A stretch of DNA of 64,000 nucleotides from an archaeon. Its GTDB lineage: Archaea > Nanobdellota > Nanobdellia > Woesearchaeales > GW2011-AR9. The position numbers and the translations under genes are program-made. The notes below the pieces were generated by a model. The model worked only from the letters and a program-made list of their open reading frames with translations. It ran no database searches and was not told the DNA's origin. Shown here in pieces: positions 4,180 to 58,800 of the stretch; within the stretch, counting starts at the first letter, position 1, and the number at the start of each line of letters is the position of its first letter. The DNA is taken from NCBI GenBank assembly GCA_043812455.1, contig JBDRMB010000029.1:8303-72302 (forward strand), read 5' to 3'.

Positions 4180-4232
4180 AAAGTTTAAACATTTAAACTA
4201 AAATATATAGTTTAAACATAAAGTTTAAACAT
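4180..4232. promoter_or_regulatory. three copies of 13-mer A(A/T)AGTTTAAACAT plus one TTTAAAC half-copy; candidate operator array
   Basis: The palindrome GTTTAAAC occurs at 4183, 4210 and 4223, and TTTAAAC at 4193. The array lies in the divergent intergenic region between the AbrB-PhoU gene and the 4279 operon. The TATA-like AAAATATATA at 4201-4210 is interleaved with it. Confidence 0.4.
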
Positions 4233-4278
4233 TTCTTTCCAAAAACATTGTAACTACAAAAGAGTAAGAACACAAAAG

Positions 4279-9695: not shown

Positions 9696-11582
9696 TCATT
9701 CAAAAAATATTCTTTTTATTCCTTTTAATTTTAATAACCTATTAACAAGAACTTCAATAAGTTCCATTTCTTTAGGTACAATTACAAAAGAACATTCAGA
9801 ATCTTGACCAAGAAGTTTAGCTTTCGCTTCCCGGACTTCAAACTTAGCATTGACAATGGTATGCAACAAGTCTGCTAATAATCCTGACCGGTTTCCTGCA
9901 ACTACATAAAATTTGAAATTTTTGCTAAGAGTATCTTTCCAACTTACTTTGACCCATCGTTCTTCCTCTTTTTCAATTTGCTCACACTCTTTTTTATGTA
10001 CAGAAATCAATCTTCTTTTAGTAACCAAACCTACAATTTCATCACAAGGAACAGGATAACAACATCTCGCTAGAACACAAGAGGCCTGCTTAAATTCGGG
10101 GGAATATACCAAAGTTTCGTACTCTTCCATAACTTGTGGTTTTAAGATCCGATAATGTAATGCTGGTAATTTTTGATATTTCTTCACACCTTTCCTGATT
10201 TTTTGTTTAGCTCTAGATGAGATCACAAATTTAAGCCAGTTACGTCTTGGCAACTGTTTCTTAGAAGTTAAGACTTCAATAACATCCCCTTTTTTTAATT
10301 GAGTACGTAACGGAACAAACTTACCATTTACATTAGCTCCGACAGTACGATTACCTACTTCTTCATGTACAATGTACGCAAAATCTAATACCGTTGCTCC
10401 CAACGGCAAGTATTTAACGTCACCTTTAGGGGTATAACAATAAATCTGATCATTGAAAACGTCAATCTTAACATTTTCCAGAAATTCCCTTGCACTGGCA
10501 TCTTTTTGAAGGCTGAGGATATCCTTCATCCACTCCATTCGTTTCTCAAAATCAAAATCAGATTTCAGACCTTTATATCTCCAGTGTGCAGCCAAACCTT
10601 CTTCTGCAATATCATCCATTTCTTTAGTTCTGATCTGTACTTCTAAGAACTTGTTACCTTTCCATTTCAGTGCAGTATGGATTGACTGATAACCGTTAGG
10701 TTTTGGATGAGAGATGTAATCTTTTAATCTTCCTTCAATCGGTTCAAAATTTTCGTGCAGAAAACCAAGTACTGCATAACAATCATTTATTGTTTTTACA
10801 ACTACTCTTATCCCTAAAAAATCATAAATGTCCTGTAACCGTTTTCCTTTCTTGACAACTTTTTTGTAAATACTGTAAATATGTTTAGACCTTCCTTTGA
10901 CGTCAATAAATTCAACATTTTTCAAGGATTTAATCTTATCAATAGCTTCATTAACATCATCATCTCGTTCTTCTCGTGAAGTTTCTAAAAAATCAGCAAT
11001 CTCTTGAAATTTTTTTCGATTGATTGCTTTGAAAGCCAGATCTTCCAGCTCAGTCCTGATTCTTTCCATCCCTAGACGATAAGCTAACGGAGCATAAATG
11101 TCAAGAACTTCTTGAGAAATTCTGATTTGTTCATCTTTAGGTAAGGCATCAATATCTCTTTGATTATCTAACTTATCAGCAAGTTTAATGAAAATAACTC
11201 GGACATCGTTCACTGTTGCCAAAAGCACTTTTCTAATCGTTTCTGCAGTAAGTTTAATGTTTCTTTTCCTGATGGTAGTTATTTCATCCACACCTTTAAC
11301 TAAAGAAAGAACATCCTGACCAAACTTTTCTTTAATTTCCTGATCGGTTTTATACTTACTTGTCCCATGTATGATTGCTGCCAAGATAAGTTCAGGAGCA
11401 GCACCATTTTCTGCTAATATTTTCGCTACGCGCAAACTATGATCAAAATAATCATCTCCAGCCAATCTTTTTTTATCGCTTAAGATTTCTCTAGCAAAAA
11501 TAATTCCTTCTTCAAACTTAGTGATATCTTTATCGGAATAATCTTTTGTGTCCAGAAATCGAAAGAATGATTGAATATCCAT
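9696..11582 (-). CDS. bifunctional (p)ppGpp synthetase/hydrolase, RelA/SpoT homologue
   Basis: 628 aa. The HD hydrolase region is HSLRVAKILA. The synthetase motifs are DFLGIRVVVKTINDCYAVLGFLH and DYISHPKPNGYQSIHTAL. A TGS-like region (VYSPKGDVKYLPLGATVLDFAY) follows. Confidence 0.85.
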   Translation of the reverse strand: MDIQSFFRFLDTKDYSDKDITKFEEGIIFAREILSDKKRLAGDDYFDHSLRVAKILAENGAAPELILAAIIHGTSKYKTDQEIKEKFGQDVLSLVKGVDEITTIRKRNIKLTAETIRKVLLATVNDVRVIFIKLADKLDNQRDIDALPKDEQIRISQEVLDIYAPLAYRLGMERIRTELEDLAFKAINRKKFQEIADFLETSREERDDDVNEAIDKIKSLKNVEFIDVKGRSKHIYSIYKKVVKKGKRLQDIYDFLGIRVVVKTINDCYAVLGFLHENFEPIEGRLKDYISHPKPNGYQSIHTALKWKGNKFLEVQIRTKEMDDIAEEGLAAHWRYKGLKSDFDFEKRMEWMKDILSLQKDASAREFLENVKIDVFNDQIYCYTPKGDVKYLPLGATVLDFAYIVHEEVGNRTVGANVNGKFVPLRTQLKKGDVIEVLTSKKQLPRRNWLKFVISSRAKQKIRKGVKKYQKLPALHYRILKPQVMEEYETLVYSPEFKQASCVLARCCYPVPCDEIVGLVTKRRLISVHKKECEQIEKEEERWVKVSWKDTLSKNFKFYVVAGNRSGLLADLLHTIVNAKFEVREAKAKLLGQDSECSFVIVPKEMELIEVLVNRLLKLKGIKRIFFE

Positions 11583-18078: not shown

Positions 18079-18651
18079 TTAATATGAAACAACGATCACA
18101 TCAAATGTTTTTGAATAAACTACTTCTTTCTCTAACATAGGATTTTCTATCACTAAATCTAAAGTATAAGTTCCAGGATAATCTTCATTGGAAAGAATGA
18201 AATAATCTGAATAGTAAACTGTTTCTTCATCTTTGTTACTAGTAGTTTCATAATAATAATTGTTTTCTTCTTCAACTTCTAACAATACTTTTCCGGAAGG
18301 ACTAATTAACCGATAATTTTCCACTAAGATGATATCCCCATAATAAGGTGTGGTTAAAACTTCAAAAAAGAAATGAACTTCATCACCTGGAAGAAAATTT
18401 AAAGCAGCAGTATTACACCCAGTAGCACTGCTATATTCATCACAAAACTTGAAATTTTGGATCACAACATTGCCACCACGACCAAAAGGCATGAATTCTG
18501 TATTGAGCATACTTGCACCAGTGTTAGAAGTTTGAGTTTCTTCTACGTTCAATAATCCTAACTTAACTAGTCCAAACACTGCTGCACTAGTTAACACCAC
18601 TGTAACTAAGACTACCAATGCTTCTTTTGCAATTGTTGCTTTTTTGTTCAT
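18079..18651 (-). CDS. membrane-anchored protein with the family beta-sandwich-like module (start trimmed to Met at 18651)
   Basis: From MNKKATIAKEALVVLVTVVLTSAAVFGL (TM), then FKFCDEYSSATGCN...GDEVHFFFEV...NYRLISPSGKVL...PGTYTLDLVIEN. The trimmed start lies 7 nt after the stop of the giant upstream gene. Confidence 0.5.
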   Translation of the reverse strand: MNKKATIAKEALVVLVTVVLTSAAVFGLVKLGLLNVEETQTSNTGASMLNTEFMPFGRGGNVVIQNFKFCDEYSSATGCNTAALNFLPGDEVHFFFEVLTTPYYGDIILVENYRLISPSGKVLLEVEEENNYYYETTSNKDEETVYYSDYFILSNEDYPGTYTLDLVIENPMLEKEVVYSKTFDVIVVSY

Positions 18652-18658
18652 TTTTAAT

Positions 18659-21600
18659 TTAATCACAACCATATCCGGAACTGTCATAATCATCAAGATT
18701 AATTTTGTCAGGCAATTCTTTTCCAACTTCACACATATACTTCCTGATCTTCTGGAACTCGGCAGTGTTAATGTCATCTTCATCAAAATCAAGTAAGGCA
18801 TAACCGTTAGCGTCCATCCGTAAAAAGAAGCGGTCAAATAACGGTTTGTAATCTCCTGATTTCCAATTACTGCCCAACTGAGCAATGACTGCTGCCATAT
18901 AATAATAAATTCCTATTGCTTCATCCAAATATCCTCGTAGTTCATCCATTTTCACAATGGCAAGCTGCATAACATCTTCATATCTTTGATTCTCAAAATA
19001 AGTATAAATCTCGCTAGTAGCTTCTTGAACTTCATGCTCTCTCTGAACCGTGATACTCTCAGGATGGCTAGATTTTCCTAAAGCAACAGTAGGCACTCTG
19101 TCTTTAGCACCGTAACATGAACCTAAACTGTTAGGTTCAAGTAAATCTGCAGTTACAGTCACTGTTCTTACATTGGAACTTGTACTTGACCTGCCTTGCT
19201 GGGTATTATACACACACGCTCCAGTACCAGTGGCACTGCCCAACACTCCACTTACTTGCATGTTGCCTACTGTAAATACAATATTATTAATCTCATCAAT
19301 GCCAAACTCATCATCACCGTTAGAGTTTACCAACTTACCACCTGTTAACTGGTATTGACTTCCAGCAACACTAATTCCTGCAGCAGAATTTACATTATCT
19401 AACACATAATCATTTCCACTCTTAGAAAAACCAAACGTGACTTCTTGACCTGGAGCAACTGTCCCGGAAGTATAAGAAGCGTCAATACTTCTTGGACAGC
19501 CACTATTACTTTTACTGCTAATCCTGTCCAGACCAGCATTTGAACCGCCAAACATTTCTTCATTAACAGTACCTAGACTAAACACCGGACCCATAAACCC
19601 GGCAGCACCAGCTGGTATTTCATAACTTCTTTCTCTGTTAGCTTCATCAATACCAGCAGAACTGGTCTTTAACCTTAAACAATAATTTTCTCCGTCAGTG
19701 TTCATGTGAACCTTAACTTTAATTTCATCGCCCATCAATAACATGTTAGGAGTATCACAGTCAACATAAGTACCAGCATTTTTATCATAACAAGTGATGT
19801 ACGGATCTTGCAGATAAGCCAGACCTTCACCATAGAACAGACCTGCCAGTTCTGGACAGGAATATTGTCCAGTAGAAGCTTCAACTTGACAACTTACTAC
19901 ACCAGGGGGTGAAGCGTCAGTGATCGGGAAATAAAACAAACCATCTTTATATCCCTCATCAAAACAGGCATCTGGATTCTCGTAAGGATCTAACTGTAGA
20001 TGAACAACTACATGATCGTACCTGAAATGTTTGTCAACCTTTTGCGGGGATTCAATTGGCAATTCTACCACACTACCCTGTTCTAAGTTAGAACCACGAC
20101 CACCATCAAGATAATGTATTCGTTCGCTAGCTAATGGTGAAGTACTACCAACGTTAAGACAATCACAACCTTGACTGCCACAATCAACTCCTGGATGACC
20201 CATATCTTCCGGTCCGACACATTTCAAATAAGTTTGGTATGAGGCAATTTTACAACCTGGGAAGATTACCGTTCCAACTTCATAATTGAACTGCGCAGTT
20301 AAAGTTTGAGGATTATAATTAGTTAGTTCTCTGAACGCTGGGAACACTAATACACTAGATTTCATTGGAACTGAATAAGCTACATCTTCAATAAAGTCAA
20401 AGCCCATTGGCCAGTCAAAACCAAAGGCCGCCATACAGATTGATTCTGCTACACCTTGCACTCCGCTGGCAAAATATTCGTTAAGTGCAGAATTGCCATA
20501 ATCACTTTGCAAGTCATCAATAGAATATTGCATTGAATCATAGATTGATTCTGTTCCGGCACCAAAAAGTTCAGCAGCTGTAGTTTGATTACCTTTGTTT
20601 GCATCTTTCAAACTTAATGGACTACACTTGCCACTGAAAGAAGCAATAAGTTTGTAAATCAAACCGCAAACGTGTTGCGAGAATAAAGTTTTACACATTC
20701 CAGCGTCATGGAATCCAGTATATTTCGCTTCTTCAATACATCTTCTTAATCCGTCTAAGATGCTACGTAACATTACTAACCGTGCTCTTATTCCAGTTAA
20801 ACATACTGTCTGGAATGCACTAATATGTTGAGTGTGCGGGTTAACTTGAGTTTTCTTTTTCAATTCGCTAGGTACTGCATAATCTGGAAGATAATCTAAC
20901 CCGAATGCACCAGATAGGTCTCTGCCGTCATAATATCTTAATTCAGAATAATGTGTTCCTTTGAAACCTTTACTTTCAGTGTATAATCGATCTTGTCGGT
21001 AACTGAACTTCTCTGCAACACCATCTTCCTTTAATGCTTCTCTATATCCAGTAGTTGTAATTTTCTTTTCGGAACCTTCACAGACACATTGGTACTTTTC
21101 CCCATCACTGCCTACAAAACAATCTTTAGTATGACCGCCAGAGATCATATTACCTTCCATTTTTCTTGAAGGACCAACTAATTGGTCGTCTTCTCCTACT
21201 CTATAACAAGAACCTCCTGTTGTACTAGAGATAATTTCAGATGGTGCCTCACTAGGGTCAACAACAATATCTGCGTCAGCGCTAGCAGCCTGCCCAGTAA
21301 TTGCTTCATCTGTAGAAGCAGTAGCAGTACTTACAATTCCACTAACCGAACCATCTTTAATTGTATACCCATCAGTCACTGCTTTATAACCAGAATTCTT
21401 TGCACAAACTGCTTTACAGGTAGTGTCAGGAGCACCACAATAACCACCGTTAGCTTCTTTGTAAACTAATATTGTTTGGGATTCAAAACCGGTTGACAGA
21501 CCATTACCACTCACTATCTTTTCTAACCGATAAATTCCGTTTTCTTCACTGACAAAATTATCAGGGTTCTTACCATTAAAATAATATAAAGAACCACTAA

Positions 21601-24139
21601 TGGTACCACCAGTACTACTTATCACATTTTCATTATCAAACCGTTCCCAACATTCTCCTGAAGCAGGTATCGCTGTAGTGTCAACTCGATGAATACTAGG
21701 CAAGGTATTTTTCACATACTGCCCGCAATTCTCAATTTTTCGTAACGGGATACAACCAGAAGTTACTGCACAACCTTTCTGAGTGGCAATCGCAGCTTCA
21801 ATCTCTTCTTCTGTTTTTTCTGAAGTCCATCCAGCAGGTACTGCTCGGCATAAGAACCGATCACATGTCCAACGATATGCTTGGTCCAATGCTTCTTCCG
21901 CTTTCCAGAGATTTGCAGTGTTTTCACATTTATCTTCTAAATTGTGTTTACCATCATTATAATCAGAAGGTAAATTGTTAGCGCCAGGATTTCCTGCTGC
22001 TAACTCATCCCACTTTTCCCTAGTCGTATCAAGATACAAATCACTTTGATCCAACGGACATCTTTCATCTTCAGGCTTATTTCTAGATGTAAGATATTCT
22101 GCTTTAGAACTGAATATCCTTGCGAACCTAATCACGGTCTTAACACCGACAGAAACGAAACAAGTAACACCAGTAACTAGAATAACTTTTTCCAGCACCG
22201 GTAAGATCTTGTCAATAACTGTTATCGTACCGTTAAGAACTTTGATTCCTTCATTGGCCATCCAGTCAGGAATAAGTTTCTCGCTGTCTACTGGAATGTC
22301 AACAAAATATCCTAAATCATAACAACTTGTTTGAGTTTTAGATTCTCCTAAGTTGCCTAAAGAATCATACTCTTGATAATTAACCATAACCTTTAACGGA
22401 AATACTACCTGCCGTTTCTTAAAATCGTTCCAGAAATCATCGTCAACATAACTTAAACCTTCTGTGGTTAACAAGTCCCATGTTAAGTAATATGCTGTCT
22501 TGTCGGGACTGTCTAAAACTTTTGGTCCGGAACTAGGTAAGATTGCACAACCCACACCAAACTGTTCATCATCCATCATTGACTGTGTACAAGCTTTCTC
22601 AAACCGGACACTGTTAACCTGGAAAGCGTCCCTATTTTCTTCACCGGTGACTATATCGCGTTCAGCAATTCCACTGCCAACATAACTTAAATTGAATACT
22701 GCAGTTGCAACTTCTCGGCCATCTTCAATCAAATCAGGGTTTAATCTCATTGGTTGCTGGAACTTAGCAATGCTAGTAATCTGAAAATCAAAATTTGACG
22801 AGTAACAGGTATGGACAGTAACCACATCATGCCAATAACCGCTTTTTCCACTTTTGTCAACAGAGATAAGATAAACGTTATAGGTCCATTCTTGTGCTTG
22901 ACTTACAGATTCGATTGGATAAATTGAAACACCTTCTAAGCCTGAAGGTACCAGTTCAAACTCAAAATCTTCAAAACTTAACGGTTCAGTTTCAAAGTTA
23001 ACTTTTTCAAACGTAAAATTTCCGTCCTCACCAGCTTCTACTGCAAACCACGGTCCCCTAAAGTCAGGTTCGTATTGATAACTTAACGGTCGGTAAATGA
23101 ATAGATATACTGTGGAACCTGGTTCTGTAGTTCCATGAAGATTAGTTGTTGCTCTGTTTTGATAATATTCATTCCCTTTTTCAAATTCTGCTTCAACGTC
23201 TGGCGGTTGAGTGTCAGCATCAATCTCAATCTTTTCTCTTGCCACCCAACCTGCTCGGTCAGTCGCTTCAATAGTAATTTTATTAATGCCTTCATCAAGA
23301 TGTAATTCTTCACTAAAACTAGTTCCTTCAGTATTGTAAATTGAATTTCCATTTACAAATATTTCAATACTACATTCTTCATTGACTGCTCCTTTCAATG
23401 TAACATGATCTTCAAGTGCAATTTCGCTATAAGTCTCAAGAGCAATTTCTGGATGAGTATTATCAGAATAAACTACTCCTGAATATGTTTGGACCTGACC
23501 GTCAGTTGTGGTGGCTTCTAAGTCTAGAACATTACTTTCGTCAGCATTCAAAGGTACATTCTGGAACTGAAAAGTTCCATCCGAAGCAGCAGTTTTCTTG
23601 GCATGATATCCGCCATTAACATAAACTCTAACTTCAGCGTTTGCCAGAGTACTTCCATTAATGTCAAAATATTCTCCAGCAACAATTTCTGGATGTTCCA
23701 CGCTCAAACTTAACGAACTGCTGCCAGTAGTTACAGTTTCTCCAGAACTTTCTCCACTAGCTTCAGTCGTTCCCAAAGTCTGGAAATTATAATTATTGCC
23801 AGAATTGTTCTCTGCCACGCCGTTGCTCATAACATAATAATAATAGTCTGTTCCTGGCATCAATCCGTCAATTGCAAGACTATGATCAGTAACAGCACTT
23901 GTATCACTCTCTACTCTTGTTAAACTGAACTCATTATCCCCATAATAAATAAAACTGTCTGCTTCTTCATCAGTGTTCCATTCAATAATTATTCCAGTTT
24001 CAGTAAGGTCCTTTTCAGTAATTCCAGAAATTTGTATTGCACTGACTAATGGTAGATTAACAACTAGAATCACTACTAAGATTGTCCAAAGTTTCCAATG
24101 CATACCAAACTTTTTATTTTCTACCATTTCATAAATCAA
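18659..24139 (-). CDS. giant secreted cell-surface protein (1826 aa), N-terminal FN3-like domain, Ig-like repeats, Cys-rich central and C-terminal region
   Basis: The signal peptide is WKLWTILVVILVVNLPLVSA. An FN3-like (purple-acid-phosphatase N-terminal type) segment is ISGITEKDLTETGIIIEWNTDEEADSFIYYGDNEFSL...PGTDYYYYV. The rest has many Cys pairs and Thr/Ser/Gly/Asn-rich segments. No catalytic motif recognised. Confidence 0.6.
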   Translation of the reverse strand: MIYEMVENKKFGMHWKLWTILVVILVVNLPLVSAIQISGITEKDLTETGIIIEWNTDEEADSFIYYGDNEFSLTRVESDTSAVTDHSLAIDGLMPGTDYYYYVMSNGVAENNSGNNYNFQTLGTTEASGESSGETVTTGSSSLSLSVEHPEIVAGEYFDINGSTLANAEVRVYVNGGYHAKKTAASDGTFQFQNVPLNADESNVLDLEATTTDGQVQTYSGVVYSDNTHPEIALETYSEIALEDHVTLKGAVNEECSIEIFVNGNSIYNTEGTSFSEELHLDEGINKITIEATDRAGWVAREKIEIDADTQPPDVEAEFEKGNEYYQNRATTNLHGTTEPGSTVYLFIYRPLSYQYEPDFRGPWFAVEAGEDGNFTFEKVNFETEPLSFEDFEFELVPSGLEGVSIYPIESVSQAQEWTYNVYLISVDKSGKSGYWHDVVTVHTCYSSNFDFQITSIAKFQQPMRLNPDLIEDGREVATAVFNLSYVGSGIAERDIVTGEENRDAFQVNSVRFEKACTQSMMDDEQFGVGCAILPSSGPKVLDSPDKTAYYLTWDLLTTEGLSYVDDDFWNDFKKRQVVFPLKVMVNYQEYDSLGNLGESKTQTSCYDLGYFVDIPVDSEKLIPDWMANEGIKVLNGTITVIDKILPVLEKVILVTGVTCFVSVGVKTVIRFARIFSSKAEYLTSRNKPEDERCPLDQSDLYLDTTREKWDELAAGNPGANNLPSDYNDGKHNLEDKCENTANLWKAEEALDQAYRWTCDRFLCRAVPAGWTSEKTEEEIEAAIATQKGCAVTSGCIPLRKIENCGQYVKNTLPSIHRVDTTAIPASGECWERFDNENVISSTGGTISGSLYYFNGKNPDNFVSEENGIYRLEKIVSGNGLSTGFESQTILVYKEANGGYCGAPDTTCKAVCAKNSGYKAVTDGYTIKDGSVSGIVSTATASTDEAITGQAASADADIVVDPSEAPSEIISSTTGGSCYRVGEDDQLVGPSRKMEGNMISGGHTKDCFVGSDGEKYQCVCEGSEKKITTTGYREALKEDGVAEKFSYRQDRLYTESKGFKGTHYSELRYYDGRDLSGAFGLDYLPDYAVPSELKKKTQVNPHTQHISAFQTVCLTGIRARLVMLRSILDGLRRCIEEAKYTGFHDAGMCKTLFSQHVCGLIYKLIASFSGKCSPLSLKDANKGNQTTAAELFGAGTESIYDSMQYSIDDLQSDYGNSALNEYFASGVQGVAESICMAAFGFDWPMGFDFIEDVAYSVPMKSSVLVFPAFRELTNYNPQTLTAQFNYEVGTVIFPGCKIASYQTYLKCVGPEDMGHPGVDCGSQGCDCLNVGSTSPLASERIHYLDGGRGSNLEQGSVVELPIESPQKVDKHFRYDHVVVHLQLDPYENPDACFDEGYKDGLFYFPITDASPPGVVSCQVEASTGQYSCPELAGLFYGEGLAYLQDPYITCYDKNAGTYVDCDTPNMLLMGDEIKVKVHMNTDGENYCLRLKTSSAGIDEANRERSYEIPAGAAGFMGPVFSLGTVNEEMFGGSNAGLDRISSKSNSGCPRSIDASYTSGTVAPGQEVTFGFSKSGNDYVLDNVNSAAGISVAGSQYQLTGGKLVNSNGDDEFGIDEINNIVFTVGNMQVSGVLGSATGTGACVYNTQQGRSSTSSNVRTVTVTADLLEPNSLGSCYGAKDRVPTVALGKSSHPESITVQREHEVQEATSEIYTYFENQRYEDVMQLAIVKMDELRGYLDEAIGIYYYMAAVIAQLGSNWKSGDYKPLFDRFFLRMDANGYALLDFDEDDINTAEFQKIRKYMCEVGKELPDKINLDDYDSSGYGCD

Positions 24140-26484: not shown

Positions 26485-27837
26485 TTACTTAATTTTCCTA
26501 ACCTTAAATCCTTCCTTTTGATCATCAACAGAATAACCTTTCTTGGTCAGTTCATCCCTTAATTTGTCTGAAGTTGCCCAATCTTTAGTTTGCCTAGCTT
26601 TTTCCCGTTCTTTTGCAAGTTTCAGAATTTCAGCAGGAATCTTTTCTTCCTTAACATTTTCAAGACCCAATCCAAACACTTGGTCAAAATAATACAATAA
26701 ACATAACTTCTCGTTATCCTTAACAGTACTGTCTTTAAGCAAGTCCCACATTGTTGCTAAAGCTTGTGGAGTATTCAAATCATCACTAACTTGTTCCAAA
26801 AACAGGTCTTGATATCTTCTAGCTACACCTGAAAATTTTTCAGGATTAAGTTTTCCCTTACCAATTTTAACTTCTTCCTTCAAATCTAAAACTCGCTCAA
26901 CCAACTTTTCTCGAGCAGTTTTAGCGGACTCTAAAGCTTCATAGTCAAACATTAACGGCTTTCGGTAAACTGTTCCTAAGCAGAAATATCTATAATCAAG
27001 TGCAACAAAACCTTTTTCTTTCAAAGTAGATAAAGTGACAAAATTATCACCAGACTTGGCCATCTTTTCTCCTTTCTTCAAAACGAGAAATTCATTATGT
27101 AACCAATATTTAACCCACGGTTTTTTACCAGTTGCAGCTTCTGACTGTGCAATTTCATTTGTATGATGTACAGGAATATGATCAATGCCACCACAATGAA
27201 TGTCAAATTGTTCGCCTAGATATTTCATGCTCATTGCTGAACATTCCAAATGCCAGCCAGGATAACCCATCCCAAACGGAGAATCCCACTTCATTTCTTG
27301 TTCATCAAACTTAGATTTGGTAAACCATAACACAAAATCATAGGGATTTTTCTTGTTTATGTCTTTTTCAACCCTTGCTCTTGCCTTTTCTCCATCTTCT
27401 TCCAGATTCAATCGTGCAAGTTTTCCATAATCTTTCAGTTTAGAAGTATCAAAATAAACATTTCCGCCCGCTTGATAAATGAAACCTTTTTTCTCTAATT
27501 TTTTTATCAGTTCAATCTGTTCCTTGATATGTTCAGTGGCTTTGGGAAATACTTTTGGAAATAAAAGATTCAGTTCCTTAATGTCATTCTTGAAAGCTTT
27601 AGTGTAAAAATCTGCAACTTCCCAAACAGTCTTTTTTTCACGTTCAGCACCTTTCAATAATTTATCTTCTCCAGTGTCAGCATCAGAAGTAAGATGTCCA
27701 ACGTCAGTGATGTTCATGATATGTTCAACTTTAAAACTATTCAACTCCAGAACTCTTCTCAAAACATCTTCAAAGATATAACTACGCAAATTTCCGATAT
27801 GTGCATAATTGTAAACAGCATGCCCAAAATTTCTTAT
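26485..27837 (-). CDS. cysS: cysteine--tRNA ligase, main reading frame (HIGH motif through C-terminus)
   Basis: The HIGH motif is [13 protein letters not shown] and the KMSKS-like motif is KMAKSGDN. It is class I CysRS-like throughout ([19 protein letters not shown]). The frame is closed upstream by TAA at 27840-27838. Confidence 0.8.
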
Positions 27838-27944
27838 TTAGAAACTTTGTTTGGCCCGCAACAATATATGCCCACAGATTTGGAATTTATTGGTTCAAAT
27901 GTTTCTTTTTTCCTAGTTAAAGTATTATATACTTTTAATTTCAT
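27834..27944 (-). pseudogene. cysS: out-of-frame N-terminal fragment of cysS (36 codons, [31 protein letters not shown]...)
   Basis: ATG 27944 opens a frame matching the CysRS N-terminus up to CGP. It then runs NKVSK-stop. Deleting the 32 nt at 27817-27848 restores [13 protein letters not shown], which is collinear with CGPTVYDYxHxGH in other CysRS proteins. Confidence 0.55.
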
Positions 27945-27946: not shown

Positions 27947-29089
27947 TCACCCCACTACAAGGTTAATTAATTTGTTTTGTTTTCTGTCTAATGAATATCC
28001 AATGTATTTATAAAATTTTGTGAGGCTACCTTTCCTAGCAATATGTAAATCAAAGCAGAGACTGTATCTTCCAGCATGTGTTCTACTCAAGCGACCTGCA
28101 AAAATTCTGTTTTTAATATCAAGTTCCTTAAGAATTTTGGATTCTCCTTGCAAAAGTTTAGGAGCTTTATTTAACTCACTCAGTAACTTTTTATCTTCAA
28201 TTAGTCCTGATGCTTTCTTGATTGTAATAACCTTGGTTATATGTCCTGTAGGGAATTTGTTAATCAACATAAACTTATCAAGCAGTTCTAATTCTTTTAT
28301 TTGTTTTTTAGTTAAATTATTTAGATGCCTATAACGCGAAAGTGTGATATACCCATAATTTCCTTTCTTATCTTTGTACACTGAAGATTCATCATCAAAC
28401 GCTGCCTTCAAGTAATTCGCTTTCATTTCTTTAGTTCCTTTCTTTATCAACCAAGGTACTTCACCATCAACTGTCGCTTTTCTTCCAGAAATTGCTCCAA
28501 CTCTTAATAAGGACTCACCAATTATAGATGAGCCAATTCTAAGCAGAATACAATTTCTTACAAATTCTTTTTGTATGTGAACCTCGCCAAATAATTTATT
28601 TATTATTTTTATAAAATTCTCTGCAGATTGCTCCTCACCAGCAGCATATTTTGTTCTAAATTTGTTTCTTGCTTTCTTATCTTTGAAAATGCAACCATCA
28701 GAAACAATTAATCCTAAAAGATAAGCACCATCTTCATTGTTGAGGTTTATTGGAAATTTTGGATTTTTTATAGAAATAACTTTCCCTTTTTTAGTCATCA
28801 AGATTTTATCATTCATATAATTATAATTAATCCCTAAGTAATCCAACAATTTCTTAAGTTTCATAACAGAAACCATATTAACACCTTTATTGTTTATCAG
28901 ATTATAAAATGTGGGACTACTCAAGTTCAATTCATTACAAAGCAGAGACAGGTTACCAGCTTTTTTAATTCCTTTTAGGATTAATTTTTCTAGTAGATCA
29001 TCTTTTAGTTCAAATAGAAATGTATCTTTAAGTTGATACCAATGAGTTTCCCAATGAGGGATTGCCAAATCTTCATTAATTGAATTCAT
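27947..29089 (-). CDS. LAGLIDADG-family (double-motif) homing-endonuclease-like protein with N-terminal HTH-like region
   Basis: The two motifs are [14 protein letters not shown] and [14 protein letters not shown] (LAGLIDADG-like), about 100 aa apart. N-terminal [24 protein letters not shown] resembles an HTH. The start is trimmed to ATG 29089, preceded by SD GGAGGT. The stop lies 2 nt before the cysS ATG. Confidence 0.6.
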
Positions 29090-29098
29090 TTTTATTAC

Positions 29099-29128
29099 CT
29101 CCAAGTTTCCACCTACTTAAACTTGGAG
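29099..29128 (-). promoter_or_regulatory. 10-bp perfect inverted repeat (CTCCAAGTTT / AAACTTGGAG) whose 3' arm contains the SD of the LAGLIDADG gene
   Basis: The arms are 29099-29108 and 29119-29128 with a 10-nt loop. The SD GGAGGT (minus strand) lies at 29097-29102. The predicted mRNA hairpin would occlude the ribosome-binding site. Confidence 0.3.
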
Positions 29129-30491: not shown

Positions 30492-31127
30492 TTACAATTC
30501 TAACACTTCAGCTTTATTTAAACTTTCTTCTTGTAAAGTCTTCAGGTCTAGCTTTTTTAATTCCAGTTCAATATTCTCTTGCTTAGATCTAGTTGCAGGG
30601 TGTTTCGGTCCGAGCAAACAACAGATTTCTGGTCCTTTCGAAATTTCATAAGTTTCAATTTCTTTGGCAATTTCAATGATTTCTTGTTTGTCGTAAGTCA
30701 AAAGTGGCCGGAGAATTTCTAAGCTTAGTTGGCTGCTGATAACTTCAAGATTACTCAATGTCTGGCTGCTTACTTGCGCAAGATTTTCTCCTGTGATCAA
30801 AAATTTAGCGCCTTCTTTTTCAGCGACCATCTCTGCTGCTTGGAACATGGCAATCTTTTGCAAGATGAAATAATTCTTATGCTGACACTTATTTACTAAT
30901 TCTTTAAGCACATTAGCAAAAGGCACTAAATAAACTTTTTTAACGCCAAGCTTCTTAACCAGCTCTTTTACTTTGTCTAACTCTTTCTCATCGGTCAACG
31001 GCACTTGATGGAAATGCACTGCAATGATGTCTAATTTTTCTTTCATTAGGTACCCTGCAACTACTGAATCAAATCCCCCTGACAAGAGTAATATGGCTTT
31101 TTTCATCTTTTTATTGGAATCCTCCAT
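30492..31127 (-). CDS. PP-loop ATP pyrophosphatase, ThiI-like (tRNA 4-thiouridine synthase catalytic domain only, no THUMP)
   Basis: KKAILLLSGGFDSVVAGYLM is the SGGxDS PP-loop. IAVHFHQVPL resembles the ThiI HF motif. At 211 aa it is much shorter than full-length ThiI. Confidence 0.55.
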   Translation of the reverse strand: MEDSNKKMKKAILLLSGGFDSVVAGYLMKEKLDIIAVHFHQVPLTDEKELDKVKELVKKLGVKKVYLVPFANVLKELVNKCQHKNYFILQKIAMFQAAEMVAEKEGAKFLITGENLAQVSSQTLSNLEVISSQLSLEILRPLLTYDKQEIIEIAKEIETYEISKGPEICCLLGPKHPATRSKQENIELELKKLDLKTLQEESLNKAEVLEL

Positions 31128-32524
31128 TTTTGAACTTGACTATTAATTTTATATTTATAGACTTTGCCCGATTTATAACGTTCCAAAACATCACAGCTTA
31201 ACAAAAATTCTAAATATTTGTATAGAGTCGAATATCCAACTTCGGTTTCTCTGGAGATTTTAGATTTGAGCTCATAAAGAGTCTTGTCTTTACAATTAAA
31301 CAACATTAAAAAATCACCGAGCTTTACACTCATGCTTGAGTGTGAGAAACGATTTAAATAATCAGTTGCTACTACTAGAGATGCCGGTTTGTAAGAATAG
31401 TTTCTAGTTAATAATTCATATTTTGTAGTCCCAGGAAAAAATAAAAAAGATAAATCCTTATTACTTTTTTTCCTTACTTTTATTGTGTAACATCCTTTTT
31501 TGTCAACTTTTTTAGAACAATTGGAAATAATTTTCTTTTTATTAAAATAATTAGCTAAATCTACTGACATTAATTTACTTTTAGTTTGTAAATTTATGTT
31601 TCCATCTAATTCCACTGAACCATCAAATTGCAAAAAACCCCTGACAAATGCATCATTAAAAATTAATGAAGAAGTTTTAATAATTGAAGGGATACTTACA
31701 GAATTAGATTTTGCTCCGTGATTAAAGCCTAAGAATTTTATTAAATGGCGAATAATTATCTTATTTCCTATTGTAAGGTGCCAAGCTCCTACTTCTTTAA
31801 ACTTTTGAGGAGAATAAACAATTTCAAAGCAATTATTAAATTGTTTTGCTAATTTCTCCAAAGGTAATTTTGAACCTTCAACTATCCTTAAGAAATAACT
31901 TACTTTAATTCTCTCAAAGCACCCATAATCTTTTACTATTGGAAGTAATTTAGCAATTGAATCTTCATTAGAACAAAATGTAAAATAACAGTGTTTTATA
32001 GAAGAATCATAACAAACATTTACTTTCCTACCAAATTTCTTATTTACATCATCAATTAAACTAAGTTCTGGTTTAGTCTTAAAAATGATATTAATTCTCA
32101 ATGGAAGCGTGCCATCAGCAGCATGAGCTCCCGCAATTTCACATAAGGGGATAGTTAATTGCTTCAAAGCCTTAACTTTTTGTGAAGTCGAGCCTGCAGT
32201 CTTGAGTAACTTTATATTAGAATTAATCTCTTTTACAAGTTTACTTTTGCTTTTGGAAGAAATTTTCAGCAATTCTAAAAATAGAGGTATGGAAAACCAG
32301 CTTTTACGAAAACTTAGATATTTTTCAATTGTATCATACGAACAATTCAACTGTTCTGCGAGATAATTAATTAAATCTTTTTTATATTGATATTTTTGAA
32401 GAATATCTCTTAAAATAAAATTGATAGTTCTCCTAGTCTCATTGTTTAAATCAAAACAAATCCATGAAAAAGGTCTTACATCTATCCTTTCATCGTGAAG
32501 TTCTAATAAATTGAATTTTTTCAT
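31103..32524 (-). CDS. LAGLIDADG-family (double-motif) protein with N-terminal HTH-like region, second copy
   Basis: The two motifs are CEIAGAHAADGTL and FVRGFLQFDGSVELDG. The N-terminal DLINYLAEQLNCSYDTIEKYL is HTH-like. 473 aa. Confidence 0.5.
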   Translation of the reverse strand: MKKFNLLELHDERIDVRPFSWICFDLNNETRRTINFILRDILQKYQYKKDLINYLAEQLNCSYDTIEKYLSFRKSWFSIPLFLELLKISSKSKSKLVKEINSNIKLLKTAGSTSQKVKALKQLTIPLCEIAGAHAADGTLPLRINIIFKTKPELSLIDDVNKKFGRKVNVCYDSSIKHCYFTFCSNEDSIAKLLPIVKDYGCFERIKVSYFLRIVEGSKLPLEKLAKQFNNCFEIVYSPQKFKEVGAWHLTIGNKIIIRHLIKFLGFNHGAKSNSVSIPSIIKTSSLIFNDAFVRGFLQFDGSVELDGNINLQTKSKLMSVDLANYFNKKKIISNCSKKVDKKGCYTIKVRKKSNKDLSFLFFPGTTKYELLTRNYSYKPASLVVATDYLNRFSHSSMSVKLGDFLMLFNCKDKTLYELKSKISRETEVGYSTLYKYLEFLLSCDVLERYKSGKVYKYKINSQVQKWRIPIKR

Positions 32525-54703: not shown

Positions 54704-55408
54704 TCATTCTCCACCCAGATATACTTTCTTTATTTTTTTGTTATGAATAATCTCTTTCCCACCAACTAAAGCAATCTTGCCATCTTCCAACAAATAAGTT
54801 CTGTCAGCCATCTCAATAGCTTTCTTGGCGTTTTGTTCAACAATCAGAATTGCAAGACCTTCATCCCTCAACTTTTCAATAATGGCAAAAATTTCTTGCT
54901 GTAATTTCGGACTCAATCCTAAAGAAGGTTCATCCATCAACAATAATCTTGGCTTTTGCATTAAAGATCTGCCAATCGCTAACATTTGTCGTTGCCCGCC
55001 ACTTAGCGCAAACGCTTGCTGTTTTCTTCGCTCTTTCAAGATTGGAAATTTTTGATAAACTTCTTCCAACCTTTGCTTGATGATATCTGAATTTCTAATG
55101 TGATTACAAGCAATTTCTAAATTTTCCTGAACAGTTAAGTGGTCAAACACAATTCTTCCTTGTGGCATATAACTTACTCTTCTAGAAAGGAGTTGATGAG
55201 TTTTTAATTTTGAGATGTTTTTGTTATTGAAAACTATTGCACCAGAATACTGGTCAGCTATACTGTACACAGATTTGATAACTGTACTCTTTCCAGCACC
55301 GTTCGGTCCGATTAAAGCGACAACTTCATTTTCATTTACTTCTAGGTCCACTCCTTTCAGTATCTTAAGTTCCCCGTACCCAGCACGTAAATCTTTTATT
55401 TTTAACAT
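54704..55408 (-). CDS. livF: branched-chain amino acid ABC transporter ATP-binding protein (LivF-like); start trimmed to Met 55408
   Basis: Walker A GPNGAGKST, the ABC signature LSGGQRQMLAIGRSL, and Walker B LLLMDEPS. Confidence 0.8.
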   Translation of the reverse strand: MLKIKDLRAGYGELKILKGVDLEVNENEVVALIGPNGAGKSTVIKSVYSIADQYSGAIVFNNKNISKLKTHQLLSRRVSYMPQGRIVFDHLTVQENLEIACNHIRNSDIIKQRLEEVYQKFPILKERRKQQAFALSGGQRQMLAIGRSLMQKPRLLLMDEPSLGLSPKLQQEIFAIIEKLRDEGLAILIVEQNAKKAIEMADRTYLLEDGKIALVGGKEIIHNKKIKKVYLGGE

Positions 55409-55415
55409 TTTAATC

Positions 55416-56150
55416 TCACCCTCCCAGATACGCCTCAAGAACCTTTTTGTCATTCTGCACTTCCTTAGGCTTGCCGTGTGCAATAACCTTCCCAGCGTCA
55501 AGAACAAAAACATAATCCGCAATGTCCATCACAAAATTCATATCGTGCTCAATAAGAATTACGGTTTCGCCTTGACCTTTCAAATTTCTCAAAATCTCTT
55601 TGATCTTAACTCTTAATTTCGGATTAACCCCAGCAACAGGTTCATCAAGCATCAACAGGTAATGTGGTTTAGCAATCGCAACTGCAAGATCAAGTAATTT
55701 CCGTTGACCGTAACTTAAATCATTAGCATAAGTTTCAAGAGGTTTGTTCAACCCCACTAACTCAAGAACTTTTTTGATCTTATCAATACTATTACGTTTC
55801 TGGTTCAGGATACTCCACAACATACTTTCATCTTTCTTAGAGAAAGTTATTCCCAAATGATCTTGAATCGTTAAATTTTTGAATAGTCTAACTTCCTGGA
55901 AAGTTCTTGAAACTCCAGCTTTAGCAATCTTATAATCTTCAAGTTTAGTAAGATCTCTTTTACCTAAAGTTATTTTCCCAGTATCAGGTTTGATCAATTT
56001 TGAAATCACATTGAATAGAGTTGTCTTTCCAGAACCATTCGGACCAATGATAGCTGTAATTTCTCCTTGCTCAACGGTTAGCTGACAATTATCTAATGCT
56101 TTCACACCGCCAAAATTTTTACTGATTCCTCGGATTTCTAACAGACTCAT
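55416..56150 (-). CDS. livG: branched-chain amino acid ABC transporter ATP-binding protein (LivG-like)
   Basis: Walker A GPNGSGKTT, the signature LSYGQRKLLDLAVAI, and Walker B LLMLDEPVAG. Confidence 0.85.
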   Translation of the reverse strand: MSLLEIRGISKNFGGVKALDNCQLTVEQGEITAIIGPNGSGKTTLFNVISKLIKPDTGKITLGKRDLTKLEDYKIAKAGVSRTFQEVRLFKNLTIQDHLGITFSKKDESMLWSILNQKRNSIDKIKKVLELVGLNKPLETYANDLSYGQRKLLDLAVAIAKPHYLLMLDEPVAGVNPKLRVKIKEILRNLKGQGETVILIEHDMNFVMDIADYVFVLDAGKVIAHGKPKEVQNDKKVLEAYLGG

Positions 56151-57019
56151 TCTAGATCAACCCTCCCAAATATTCCCCGTGGTCGGTAAATTAAGATCAG
56201 CAATAATACTACTGCATAGAAAACCATCCTTAACGGACCTAACAGATGTCCAGGTAATGGAATAAACCGTAGCAATTCTAATAAGATGAAAATTATAAAA
56301 GTTCCAATGATCGAACCACTGATTGAAGCAATCCCACCGATAATTACAATTGTGAAAATGAAAATAACTTCTAAAATTGTAAAGTGAGTCGGATCAATGT
56401 AAGATAAATAATGTGCTAGAAGACTACCAGCAATCCCTGCAAAGAACGCAGAAATCATCATCGCTTTATACTTTAATCTAAAAGTATTCTTACCAAGTAC
56501 TCTTAACCCAACTTCATCATCTCTGGTAGCTTCCAATAATCTGCCAAATGGTGAACGCATCAACAAATACATGATAAGAACTGAGAGAACTGTGATAATT
56601 GCAACTAGTATTAAGTAAGACCAACTTGCAGAAAATGCTATTCCAAAAATTTCCGGTTTTGGAATACCTGGCAAGCCTAAAGGTCCACCGGTTAAACTGC
56701 TCCAATTAATAAGTACTGCATAAACAACAAAACTAAACCCTAAAGTTGTCAATGCCAAATAATCTCCCCTTAGTCTTTTGGTAGCACTTGTTAATATAAA
56801 ACCAAACAAGCTGGCAAACAACCCTGCGATGATCAATGAGAAGAAAAACGGTACTCCGGCAATATTCAATAATGCTGAAGTGTAAGCTCCTACTGCAAAG
56901 AAAGCCACATGACCTAAGTTCAATAATCCAGTATAACCTAATGCAACATTCAAGCTTACTGCTAGGATAATATAAATACCAATCATGATTAAGATGTGAA
57001 TAAGGTATGCTTCAATCAT
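56147..57019 (-). CDS. livM: branched-chain amino acid ABC transporter permease (LivM-like)
   Basis: 290 aa with about 8 hydrophobic helices, positioned between the ATPase and LivH-like genes. Confidence 0.75.
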   Translation of the reverse strand: MIEAYLIHILIMIGIYIILAVSLNVALGYTGLLNLGHVAFFAVGAYTSALLNIAGVPFFFSLIIAGLFASLFGFILTSATKRLRGDYLALTTLGFSFVVYAVLINWSSLTGGPLGLPGIPKPEIFGIAFSASWSYLILVAIITVLSVLIMYLLMRSPFGRLLEATRDDEVGLRVLGKNTFRLKYKAMMISAFFAGIAGSLLAHYLSYIDPTHFTILEVIFIFTIVIIGGIASISGSIIGTFIIFILLELLRFIPLPGHLLGPLRMVFYAVVLLLILIYRPRGIFGRVDLE

Positions 57020-57891
57020 TTTCTCGCCCCCTTATCAACACCAAACAATCCTTGTGGTCTCAGTAACAAAAATAAGAACAGTAAGATGAAAGTAATCGCA
57101 TCCTTAAATCCAGAAGGCAAAAACCAAATTCCAAAATTTTCTGCTAAACCCAAAATATAACTTCCAATAATTGAGCCTGGTACAAAACCTATCCCTCCTA
57201 TAATTGCGCCGGTAAAACCTTTGATGATAAGATTAGTTCCCATAGCCGTCATCAAAGTTTGTTCTAACGCTATCAAGATACCAGCAACTCCTGCCAAGAA
57301 TGAACCAAGTATGAAAGAATAATCTGCAATTTTTTTACTGTCAATACCGGTTATGTCAGCTAATTCCTTATTATCAGCAACTGCCCGGAAATTTCTTCCA
57401 AGCTTAGTTTTTTTCATCAGCAGATAAAGTAAGATGAATAATACAACTGAAACAATAAAAATGATAATTTGTAGTACTGTTACTGTTGCTCCAAAAATAG
57501 TAATAGCTAACGGCCGGACAAATTCTAACGTTTTGATGTTAGGCCCGAACGCAATCAATATTAAATTTTCAAACAAAACTAATAATCCTACGGAAGCGAT
57601 TAATAATATAACATTAGACGATTTTCTCTGCTGTAACGGTCTGTAAATTAATCTGGACATCAATAATCCAAATATGCTTGTTAAGGTTAAAGTTAATAAA
57701 CATGATATGACAAAAGGCATTCCCAGCATTGAGAACGTCCAATACAGCAAGTAAGAGCTAACTACTACTGCCACACCATGTGCAAAGTGCATGAACTTGT
57801 TTGTGGAATATACTAGCGAGAACCCACAGGCTACGAGAGCATAGATTGATCCTATTACAAGTGAGTTTGCTAGTATTTGCGTGAATGTCAT
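57016..57891 (-). CDS. livH: branched-chain amino acid ABC transporter permease (LivH-like)
   Basis: 291 aa, polytopic. ATGA overlaps livM. Confidence 0.75.
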   Translation of the reverse strand: MTFTQILANSLVIGSIYALVACGFSLVYSTNKFMHFAHGVAVVVSSYLLYWTFSMLGMPFVISCLLTLTLTSIFGLLMSRLIYRPLQQRKSSNVILLIASVGLLVLFENLILIAFGPNIKTLEFVRPLAITIFGATVTVLQIIIFIVSVVLFILLYLLMKKTKLGRNFRAVADNKELADITGIDSKKIADYSFILGSFLAGVAGILIALEQTLMTAMGTNLIIKGFTGAIIGGIGFVPGSIIGSYILGLAENFGIWFLPSGFKDAITFILLFLFLLLRPQGLFGVDKGARK

Positions 57892-58212
57892 CTACTCTTC
57901 CCTCAACTTTTCTAAATTCTCATAAGTAAGTGGAACGTCATAGCATTCTCTTTCTTTTCCACCGTTAATACAATATGAAAGATAAGTTTCACGTAATCCA
58001 TCCTTGTCCCCATCATATGAATGAATTGATAAGGCATTATCAAAAGAATTAAGATAATCAGGATTATCAATAGGAGAATTTTTAACCACAAATCCAAATA
58101 CACCAATAGCAGATAAGAGACAAACACCAAATACTACTTGTGCTTTGATTTCTCCAGGAATTTTATAGTACAAGTCCTCTATTGTGTCTATTAGTTTCAT
58201 TCCTCCAAACAC
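57892..58212 (-). CDS. small single-TM protein, paralogue A (DGDKDG..ETYL motif)
   Basis: The TM is VVFGVCLLSAIGVFGFVV. A shared motif with the next gene is NSPIDNPDYL...DGDKDGLRETYLSY...ENLEKL. The true start may be Met5 at 58200. Confidence 0.4.
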   Translation of the reverse strand: MFGGMKLIDTIEDLYYKIPGEIKAQVVFGVCLLSAIGVFGFVVKNSPIDNPDYLNSFDNALSIHSYDGDKDGLRETYLSYCINGGKERECYDVPLTYENLEKLREE

Positions 58213-58505
58213 CCAACCATCTTCTCAAGGTTATCATCTGTCAAAGGAATTCTTACTTTACCATCATCTTGTTTAACATCGAGATAAGTTTCCTTGTAAC
58301 CATCTTTATCAGTATCTTTGACCACGATTGAAACTTCTTCATCTTTCAAATAATCTGGAGATACATTATTATTAGATAATGTTTTAGTTATAGCAAATGT
58401 TAATGACATAGATGCCATTCCTACTGCTACCCCTAACAAATAATCTTTGAATCCTTCCATTTCCCATTCACCTATTCCTAGTAAAACGATTATACAAAGC
58501 ATCAA
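58197..58505 (-). CDS. small single-TM protein, paralogue B (DTDKDGYKETYL motif)
   Basis: The TM is LLGVAVGMASMSLTFAI. The motif is SPDYL...DTDKDGYKETYLDV...DNLEKM. Start uncertain (Met1 or Met16). Confidence 0.4.
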   Translation of the reverse strand: MMLCIIVLLGIGEWEMEGFKDYLLGVAVGMASMSLTFAITKTLSNNNVSPDYLKDEEVSIVVKDTDKDGYKETYLDVKQDDGKVRIPLTDDNLEKMVGCLEE

Positions 58506-58737: not shown

Positions 58738-58800
58738 TTTTATTCCTCCATCTAACAACCCCAGAAACCACAAAATAAAAAAAATAAAAAAAAGTAAAAT

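Follow-up and report, generated by a model that had tools for sequence, protein, structure and literature searches.

A BHB mini-intron predicted within the cysteinyl-tRNA synthetase gene of a DPANN archaeon, and its association with a free-standing LAGLIDADG gene

We analyzed a 64,000-nucleotide (nt) stretch of archaeal DNA (contig JBDRMB010000029.1 of assembly GCA_043812455.1; hereafter the window) in which cysS, the gene for cysteinyl-tRNA synthetase (CysRS), is broken on the minus strand by a short insert that we propose to be an intron. The ATG at 27944-27942 starts a canonical CysRS N-terminus, and its frame ends at the TAA at 27836-27834, after the residues NKVSK. The residues VYNYAHIGN and the rest of the enzyme lie in a different frame, closed upstream, which runs to a stop at 26485 on the same strand. 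Upstream of cysS lies a free-standing LAGLIDADG homing-endonuclease gene (27947..29104, minus strand; 385 amino acids from a TTG start, 380 from the ATG at 29089), and its TGA stop (27949-27947) is 2 nt ahead of the cysS ATG. The window has a G+C content of 34% and also encodes RFC, an aRF1-family protein, TrmB, and the alpha and beta subunits of an archaeal-type PheRS. Because of these genes and the best matches of its CysRS, sequence comparison places the host among the DPANN archaea, as a Woesearchaeota/Nanoarchaeota-type organism.

A preliminary description of this DNA had reported that cysS carries a 32-nt out-of-frame insert with a stop codon between the CGP and HIGH motifs. Our reading of the frames agrees, and the insert was present in three assemblies and in a second organism. 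The sequence across the break is identical in the window and in two independent assemblies, ENA ERZ27247128 (L003; JGI/ENA) and Logan SRR6514274 (L004). The identical insertion also occurs in L001, which comes from a different organism and sample and has a CysRS 85% identical to that of the window. Over a 60-nt block that includes the insertion, the window and L001 are 100% identical, while the part of cysS downstream of the insert (exon 2) is only 82% identical and the flanking codons diverge.

The preliminary description had also noted that removal of 27817-27848 restores the frame. It does, but these boundaries are off by 2 nt and give CGPN-VY, compared with CGPT-VY when 27819-27850 is removed. 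We tested all 29-, 32-, and 35-nt deletions systematically; many reopened the frame, and only that of 27850..27819 yielded Thr, that is, CGPTVY. The closest intron-less ortholog, L002 (81% identical), reads TGT GGA CCC ACG GTT TAT, or CGPTVY, at the intron site (TGTTGTGGACCCACGGTTTATAATTATGCACAT), and the intron-less loci of our cysS survey likewise read CGPTVY. Exon 1 (27851..27944, minus strand) thus comprises codons 1-31 and the first base (A) of the Thr32 codon, ending after the second base of the 5′ bulge described below. The mini-intron, ACAAAGUUUCUAAAUAAGAAAUUUUGGGCAUG, occupies 27819..27850 on the minus strand (32 nt, with the in-frame stop UAA at 27836-27834), its boundaries being set by the rule that cuts fall between the second and third bulge residues (PMC2738675). 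Exon 2 (26485..27818, minus strand) runs from the last two bases of the Thr32 codon to the stop codon and consists of the open reading frame (ORF) 26485..27789 plus the open frame upstream of it. With cuts after A27851 and G27819, the predicted junction is CCA A/CU GUU (Pro-Thr-Val), and the predicted spliced sequence across it is GGGCCAA joined to CUGUUUAC. The spliced product would be a CysRS of 475 amino acids, with a full-length identity of 65-81% to its best matches, CysRS proteins of Woesearchaeota and Nanoarchaeota from metagenome-assembled genomes. Pfam tRNA-synt_1e and CysS_C matches for exon 2 were found on the called product P0001; for intron-bearing cysS, gene callers give just a truncated CysRS of 404-410 amino acids.

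The RNA around the break forms a motif of the bulge-helix-bulge (BHB) type (27815..27859, minus strand) in the minimum free energy (MFE) fold, the RNAalifold consensus, and a covariance model. In the outer helix, GCG (27859-27857) pairs with UGU (27817-27815), exon to exon. In the central helix, the end of exon 1, GGCC (27856-27853), faces the 3′ end of the intron, GGCA (27824-27821), with three Watson-Crick pairs and a conserved G.A. The bulges are AAA (27852-27850) on the 5′ side and UGC (27820-27818) on the 3′ side, and an inner hairpin of 10 base pairs (bp; 27849-27825) is closed by the loop AAAUA. The MFE fold of the 91 nt around the break had an energy of -25.9 kcal/mol (z = -3.9), and it agreed with the RNAalifold consensus on the succession of helix, 3-nt bulge, short helix, 3-nt bulge, and hairpin. 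In the archaeal BHB motif as described, a 3-nt bulge lies on each side of a 4-bp helix and the 5′ exon is base-paired to the intron (PMC4090602); the cuts fall between bulge residues 2 and 3 (PMC2738675). Applied to this fold, the published cut rule and 4-bp-helix layout predict exactly 27850..27819.

We examined covariation in an alignment of 15 sequences. Under the canonical structure, 96.4% of cells were standard pairs, compared with 17-59% when the partners were slid by 1-3 columns. Compensatory double changes affected four pairs (11 cells), and the observed score was matched in none of 500 shuffles. Individual changes included G-C to A-U in the central helix of L067 and L104, and A-U to U-A in the inner helix of L098. 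For the window copy, covariance model R1 returned a score of 70 bits (E = 8.5e-18); it also recovered L098 and L104, both of which had been left out of model building. It gave no other credible match in the window, and across the window and 0.5 Mb of related loci every member it detected was in cysS. No second copy of the intron hairpin was found anywhere in the window.

The element is not confined to this genome. A metagenome scan with the spliced CysRS protein gave 80 related loci, four of which (L010, L026, L067, and L070) are interrupted at exactly the same site, the others being uninterrupted CGPTVY-type genes. The exact window intron sequence had no match in GTDB genomes, and a degenerate, structure-aware pattern was required. 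This pattern identified 13 further loci, L085-L097, in GTDB representative genomes labeled Woesearchaeota, Nanoarchaeota, ‘archaeon’, ‘Euryarchaeota SM23-78’, and ‘uncultured Methanosarcinales’. Members of the ‘DDKTI’ CysRS clade entered the survey solely through the intron pattern. Two variants beyond the pattern, L098 (30 nt) and L104 (27 nt), were reached via the neighboring endonuclease gene. Counted together, 21 loci carry the same-site element. Its 17 different sequences are 27-33 nt long, with lengths of 27, 28, 29, and 33 nt occurring once each, 30 nt six times, 31 nt three times, and 32 nt four times. In 17 of 17 variants the exon-1 frame meets a stop inside the insert, and in every one of them in silico excision after the second bulge base (AA/A … UG/C or AG/C) gives in-frame CGPT(V/I)Y..HIGN. 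Both cysS exons are intact in every intron-bearing locus. The in-frame stop carried by every variant is possibly under selection. It usually lies in or beside the hairpin loop, and unspliced mRNA would encode a peptide of only ∼31-42 amino acids.

The distribution of the intron is patchy. In a neighbor-joining (NJ) tree of 92 CysRS sequences, intron presence requires at least 10 state changes, gains or losses, and intron-bearing sequences are often sister to intron-less ones (L026 to L025, L010 to L013, L070 to L047, and the window plus L001 to L002).

Together these data suggest that the 32 nt within cysS are most likely a BHB intron that is removed from the mRNA by tRNA-splicing enzymes. In the proposed mechanism, the cysS transcript, probably shared with the upstream LAGLIDADG gene, would fold so that GGCC at the end of exon 1 pairs with GGCA at the 3′ end of the intron, leaving the AAA and UGC bulges on either side of a short helix. 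The tRNA-splicing endonuclease EndA would cut after the second base of each bulge. RtcB ligase would then join CCA-A to CU-GUU. In the joined mRNA the universally conserved CGPTVY motif would regain its Thr codon, and the reading frame would continue through the active-site motif HIGN and the remaining 443 codons. Unspliced cysS mRNA would terminate at the intron stop and yield only a 37-amino-acid peptide. We infer removal by EndA and joining by RtcB from established knowledge of EndA/RtcB splicing. EndA occurs in DPANN lineages including Woesearchaeota, and the DPANN enzyme has a loop linked to broad substrate range (PMC5829648). We hold it to be highly probable that the best explanation of 27850..27819 is an EndA-spliced BHB intron in the cysS coding sequence, with a homing layer, discussed below, that we add with moderate confidence. 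The preliminary description had offered, among other options, recoding or a tiny intervening element; an intervening element it is most likely to be, specifically an archaeal BHB intron, and recoding fails on the 27-33-nt lengths, which cover all frames.

Several points weigh against this reading. The canonical 4-bp spacing of the central helix is reached only if the conserved G.A is counted, since there are just three Watson-Crick pairs. RNAalifold takes the G of the G.A to pair with the 3′-bulge C, leaving a helix of 3 bp, and with a 3-bp helix the ‘after residue 2’ rule sets the 3′ cut one base too early. Because the fourth central-helix position is G.A and RNAalifold gives a 3-bp helix, the cysS BHB is not a strict hBHBh′ motif but a relaxed one, as in most cbf5 introns (PMC2738675), and cleavage of the relaxed motif by the host EndA is assumed. 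Neither EndA nor RtcB is encoded within the 64-kb window. Finally, the pattern that identified L085-L097 fixed most of the BHB core, with only N positions and the hairpin left free, so the conservation of the core is partly by construction.

The preliminary description had called the position of a LAGLIDADG-family gene beside cysS intriguing, and this was borne out: the gene co-occurs with the intron. The window protein matches Pfam LAGLIDADG_3 above threshold (E = 1.9e-5). In an alignment of 40 homologs at 40-68% identity, D136, D238, and E239 of the motifs GLIVSDG and YLKAAFDDE are invariant. An AlphaFold2 (AF2) model of the protein (pLDDT 92.7, pTM 0.89) shows an extra N-terminal helical domain. 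The best Foldseek matches are archaeal homing endonucleases, namely the TliVMA intein endonuclease, PI-PfuI, I-Tsp061I, and I-DmoI; E values ranged from 2e-7 to 1e-4 for PI-PfuI, I-Tsp061I, I-DmoI, and PI-SceI, and the model gave TM scores of 0.62-0.69, normalized to the target, against I-DmoI and I-Tsp061I. A profile of the family searched against PDB sequences gave a marginal match to I-DmoI only (E = 0.21). From its sequence and modeled structure, we predict that ORF 27947..29104 encodes a two-motif LAGLIDADG homing endonuclease with the pseudo-dimeric alpha-beta-beta-alpha-beta-beta-alpha fold. The ORF lies outside the 32-nt intron and upstream of the cysS start, and it is neither intron- nor intein-encoded.

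The endonuclease family comprises 57 proteins (40-100% identity) among 5.8 billion, all from DPANN-type sources, and each member whose locus was examined sits immediately 5′ of cysS. Compared with the syntenic locus L002, in which only 6 nt separate cysS from the orthologous upstream membrane-protein gene (75% identical), the endonuclease gene is an insertion, with 1.39 kb between the two genes in the window; it is present in the window and L001 and missing from L002. The stop of the endonuclease gene is within a few nt of the cysS ATG in the window and in several loci besides, and the last codons (e.g. GGAGGTGA and GTGGGGTGA) resemble a ribosome-binding site for cysS. In L098 (∼1320-1378) the endonuclease ORF extends into cysS, its 3′ end sharing ∼60 nt with the start of exon 1 in a different frame. 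Because the end of the endonuclease gene overlaps or abuts the start of cysS, with last codons resembling a ribosome-binding site, this arrangement implies co-transcription.

To quantify the linkage, we ran tblastn with the window endonuclease on loci ascertained via cysS or the intron, the intron-less loci being distinct and having at least 1.4 kb upstream. The endonuclease was found 5′ of cysS in 10 of 15 intron-bearing loci and in 0 of 55 intron-less loci (Fisher p = 7.6e-9). The positive loci were the window, L001, L010, L026, L070/L091, L092, L087, L088, L097, and L094, the last of which is counted among the 10 although only a 25-amino-acid C-terminal remnant is left (6076-6150). Sampling from the protein side added four more lineages, all with the endonuclease directly 5′ of cysS. 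L098 carries a 30-nt intron and L104 a 27-nt intron. L103 (endonuclease 2501-3859, cysS 3864-5264) has no intron and reads CGPTCY, and L100-102 (endonuclease ∼2180-3433 and cysS 3510-4910 in L100) have no intron, read CGITSY, and lie in a bacterial-looking context. In the loci examined, the endonuclease was never beside an unmodified, intron-less CGPTVY-coding site; the site was either split by the intron or read CGITSY or CGPTCY. The homologs in L100-102 and L103 are 45% identical to the cysS-linked window endonuclease. In L100-102 the flanks encode bS6, SSB, and DnaX, with an rve-family (insertion sequence) integrase gene just upstream, and the same block occurs in differing surroundings. 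The L100-102 sequences suggest that the endonuclease gene moved between domains without the intron.

These associations, and the analogy to F-CphI/psbA and mobE/I-TevIII in phages (PMC6083498, PMC2790892), lead us to propose with moderate confidence that the ORF-less BHB intron is partnered with the free-standing endonuclease in ‘collaborative homing’. The endonuclease would cut intron-less cysS DNA at or near the conserved CGPTVY-coding site, and in repair from the donor allele the endonuclease gene would be copied along with exon 1 and the intron. By splitting the recognition site, the intron would make the carrier's own gene immune, as would the rare V-to-C/S substitutions. Later, the endonuclease gene would decay (L094) or disappear (L085, L086, L090, L096) and leave a vertically inherited intron. 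The loss or reduction of the endonuclease in intron-bearing loci fits decay after fixation, as in a homing cycle. In its fullest form the proposal is that a composite selfish element, made up of the endonuclease gene and a 27-33-nt BHB intron ∼95 bp downstream, spreads among DPANN cysS genes by collaborative homing, and that the endonuclease alone reached bacterial-looking genomes, where target-site substitutions replaced the intron. We regard the case for this composite element, which rests on comparative genomics and analogy, as evenly balanced. Between intron-bearing and intron-less sister pairs, exon 1 is 59-72% similar and exon 2 is 79-85% similar; a lower similarity of exon 1 would be expected if it had been co-converted with the endonuclease gene, and this is only suggestive.

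The reading that competes most seriously with collaborative homing accepts the spliced intron and denies the LAGLIDADG protein any part in its mobility: the protein could be a domesticated DNA-binding regulator of cysS, similar to WhiA, a homing endonuclease with another target, or a linked hitchhiker. We find this doubtful, but some of our data point that way and count against homing. WhiA, a nuclease-dead LAGLIDADG transcriptional regulator, is among the Foldseek matches, so the fold may be that of a non-nuclease regulator, and the modeled protein has an extra N-terminal helical domain. Five intron-bearing loci (L085, L086, L090, L096, and L093) had no endonuclease homolog by tblastn upstream of cysS, and two endonuclease-bearing cases (L103 and L100-102) have no intron. 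A second LAGLIDADG-like family sits 5′ of an intron-less gene, thiI, in the window. In addition, the discordance of exon 1 rests on ∼73-85 nt and is noisy, and a nearest-neighbor comparison of exon 1 with exon 2 was too noisy to serve as evidence. Against a non-partner role, the catalytic acids of both motifs are invariant across the 40 aligned sequences despite their divergence, and presence of the gene varies among close relatives (window versus L002, L026 versus L025). The degraded remnant in L094 fits the life cycle of a selfish element, and in no case did the gene lie beside an unmodified CGPTVY allele.

The alternatives to splicing itself fared much worse. Translational recoding, in which the ribosome would shift frame or bypass the insert as in phage T4 gene 60, has a superficial appeal: the insert is short, it contains a hairpin, and the stop comes right after the take-off region. 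A fixed ribosomal frameshift is excluded because the intron lengths cover all classes modulo 3, so that no single shift works, and read-through is excluded because the variants of in-frame length still have stops. The take-off and landing codons are unmatched (5′ side, CCA/AAC; 3′ side, GCU/GUU), the junction is predicted by the conserved bulge positions only and not by codon identity, and covariation maintains the exon-intron helix typical of EndA substrates. We therefore rate recoding as very improbable.

Split genes are well known in DPANN archaea. A split CysRS, with a 37-amino-acid N-terminal peptide associating non-covalently with a separately started C-terminal fragment in the manner of the Nanoarchaeum split genes, would agree with the TTG start that gene callers propose at 27789. 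That TTG is the first start in the exon-2 frame and lies after HIGN; upstream of HIGN the frame offers none, and the AUG in GGGCAUGCU belongs to another frame. The resulting fragment, lacking TVY..HIGN, would miss the class-I signature, and nothing about a split gene would call for a BHB that varies in length yet is conserved and covaries. A split protein seems to us just as improbable as recoding.

Taken literally, a stop codon, a frameshift, and a truncated 404-410-amino-acid gene call describe a pseudogene, with Cys-tRNA being made by another route (SepRS/SepCysS or a second cysS), and the preliminary description had raised the recent disruption of an essential gene as one option. Decay would be expected to scatter random lesions and not to keep one structured insert. 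The same site is interrupted in 21 loci with 17 variants across deeply diverged cysS genes and many species-level genomes, the exons are intact over ∼1.4 kb in all of them, compensatory changes keep the RNA structure, and the block around the insertion is far better conserved between the window and L001 than exon 2 is. The idea of a recent disruption is thus abandoned, a pseudogene is extremely unlikely, and an alternative Cys-tRNA route need not be invoked. An assembly error or strain-heterogeneity artefact, also suggested earlier and conceivable in a metagenome-type assembly where a short AT-rich hairpin could be a chimeric join, has next to no probability, given that the junction is identical in the JGI/ENA and Logan assemblies of different runs and that 13 GTDB representative genomes and 6 additional metagenome contigs carry variants. 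A group I or group II intron was rejected: 27-33 nt is far too small for a ribozyme, there was no Rfam match, and the architecture is that of a BHB.

The nearest known counterpart is the intron of cbf5 pre-mRNA in Crenarchaeota (Watanabe 2002; Yoshinari 2006; Yokobori 2009, PMC2738675). Both are short, ORF-less introns in coding sequences (16-44 nt in cbf5, 27-33 nt in cysS). The cbf5 introns are also mostly ‘unconventional’ BHBs, their cuts are predicted to fall between the second and third bulge residues, and they show patchy gain and loss among relatives (PMC2738675). The cysS intron differs in that it splits an essential class-I aminoacyl-tRNA synthetase between CGP and HIGH, and in its hosts, which are DPANN Woesearchaeota and Nanoarchaeota instead of Desulfurococcales and Sulfolobales, with a different EndA type. 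Moreover, no homing endonuclease accompanies the cbf5 intron, which its authors considered too short to encode one, whereas a free-standing one is linked to cysS. The archaeal rRNA and tRNA BHB introns of I-DmoI, I-Tsp061I, and I-PorI share with the cysS element a BHB splice motif and a LAGLIDADG enzyme; their ORF is inside an intron of a stable RNA, while the cysS mRNA intron is ORF-less and the enzyme gene is ∼95 bp upstream.

For mobility, the closest parallels are the phage cases of collaborative homing, F-CphI by psbA of cyanophage S-PM2 (PMC6083498) and mobE/I-TevIII in T4 (PMC2790892), where a free-standing endonuclease gene likewise lies beside a gene with an ORF-less or defunct-ORF intron. 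In these phages, immunity is attributed to the intron's division of the target, and the two elements undergo co-conversion (PMC6083498, PMC2790892). The phage introns, like those of all collaborative-homing cases described, are self-splicing group I introns and the enzymes are of the HNH or Endo VII type, whereas our case concerns a BHB, a cellular archaeon, and a predicted LAGLIDADG enzyme. The BHB intron in the Haloferax volcanii HVO_1309 mRNA (PMC7714728) shows that the tRNA-splicing endonuclease processes mRNA; unlike that of cysS, it lies in the 5′ untranslated region (UTR) and leaves the reading frame uninterrupted. A more distant likeness is to HAC1/XBP1 of eukaryotes (cited in PMC4090602), where a protein endonuclease works with a tRNA ligase, which in metazoa is RtcB, to remove a small, frame-shifting mRNA intron. 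There the endonuclease is IRE1, the recognition motif is another one, and splicing is stress-regulated; there is no homology to the cysS element.

In the literature searched, up to 2025, cbf5 of Crenarchaeota is the only gene named as having an archaeal BHB intron that interrupts the coding sequence, and one Haloferax 5′-UTR intron is named besides (PMC2738675, PMC7714728, PMC5829648, PMC12397907). A literature search combining BHB with cysS or aminoacyl-tRNA synthetases, DPANN, and free-standing LAGLIDADG genes found no relevant report. The cysS intron belongs with that of cbf5 in kind, its gene and its phylum being new, and the pairing with an endonuclease is new both for BHB-intron mobility and for collaborative homing. 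Being a second such family, and one found in DPANN archaea within an essential aminoacyl-tRNA synthetase, it would make mRNA splicing by the tRNA machinery broader than has been thought, and a genome-wide search for frame-restoring BHBs becomes worthwhile. Mis-annotation of the gene as a truncated CysRS (404-410 amino acids) inflates the apparent number of ‘missing essential genes’ in reduced genomes. The linkage to the endonuclease offers a testable answer to how ORF-less archaeal mini-introns, tRNA introns included, arise and spread, and the target of the 57-member LAGLIDADG family is probably well defined and highly conserved. If true, collaborative homing at cysS would be without precedent outside phage group I introns, and it would give ORF-less BHB mini-introns their first demonstrated mechanism of mobility.

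We also scanned the window with a naive BHB motif, with and without an ORF-fusion criterion. This gave thousands of matches, a number similar to that in shuffled sequence, with chance fusions at gene junctions. The scan did retrieve the cysS intron, which had the longest inner helix of all matches. One further candidate, 18666..18597, would fuse the 1826-amino-acid ORF at 18659..24139 with the ORF at 18079..18885. It was rejected: the L001 ortholog is 1818 amino acids long and unfused, and the candidate had no Pfam support and no covariance-model match. The BHB-like pairing there is probably due to chance. The smaller ORF (18079..18885, minus strand; 268 amino acids) has no Pfam family and overlaps the last 227 nt of the larger one, a surface-protein-like gene on the same strand. 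ARAGORN and Rfam searches found no tRNA and no known RNA family in the window.

The second free-standing LAGLIDADG-like gene of the window (31103..32524, minus strand; 473 amino acids) adjoins the thiI-like gene at 30492..31127 on the same strand and has a weak Pfam match. Its family comprises 11 proteins, with the motifs AGAHAADGT and FVRGFLQFDGS invariant in 9 homologs. The gene is immediately 5′ of thiI in the window and in 3 of 3 distant members examined, and it is missing at the syntenic loci L001 and L002. No intron was seen in thiI, and the first ∼40 codons of thiI (including the PP-loop SGGxDS) are far more diverged from L002 than is the remainder.

Elsewhere on the minus strand, three overlapping short ORFs in different frames (57892..58773; 106, 102, and 101 amino acids, with no Pfam family) lie between a periplasmic-binding-protein gene (58801..59940) and the remainder of an ABC transporter cluster of the branched-chain-amino-acid type (54704..57891), and could be a fragmented or interrupted gene. 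Lastly, 9696..11582 (minus strand) encodes a full-length RelA/SpoT homolog (RSH) of bacterial type, with HD_4, RelA_SpoT, TGS, and ACT domains; to our knowledge, long RSH enzymes are uncommon in Archaea.

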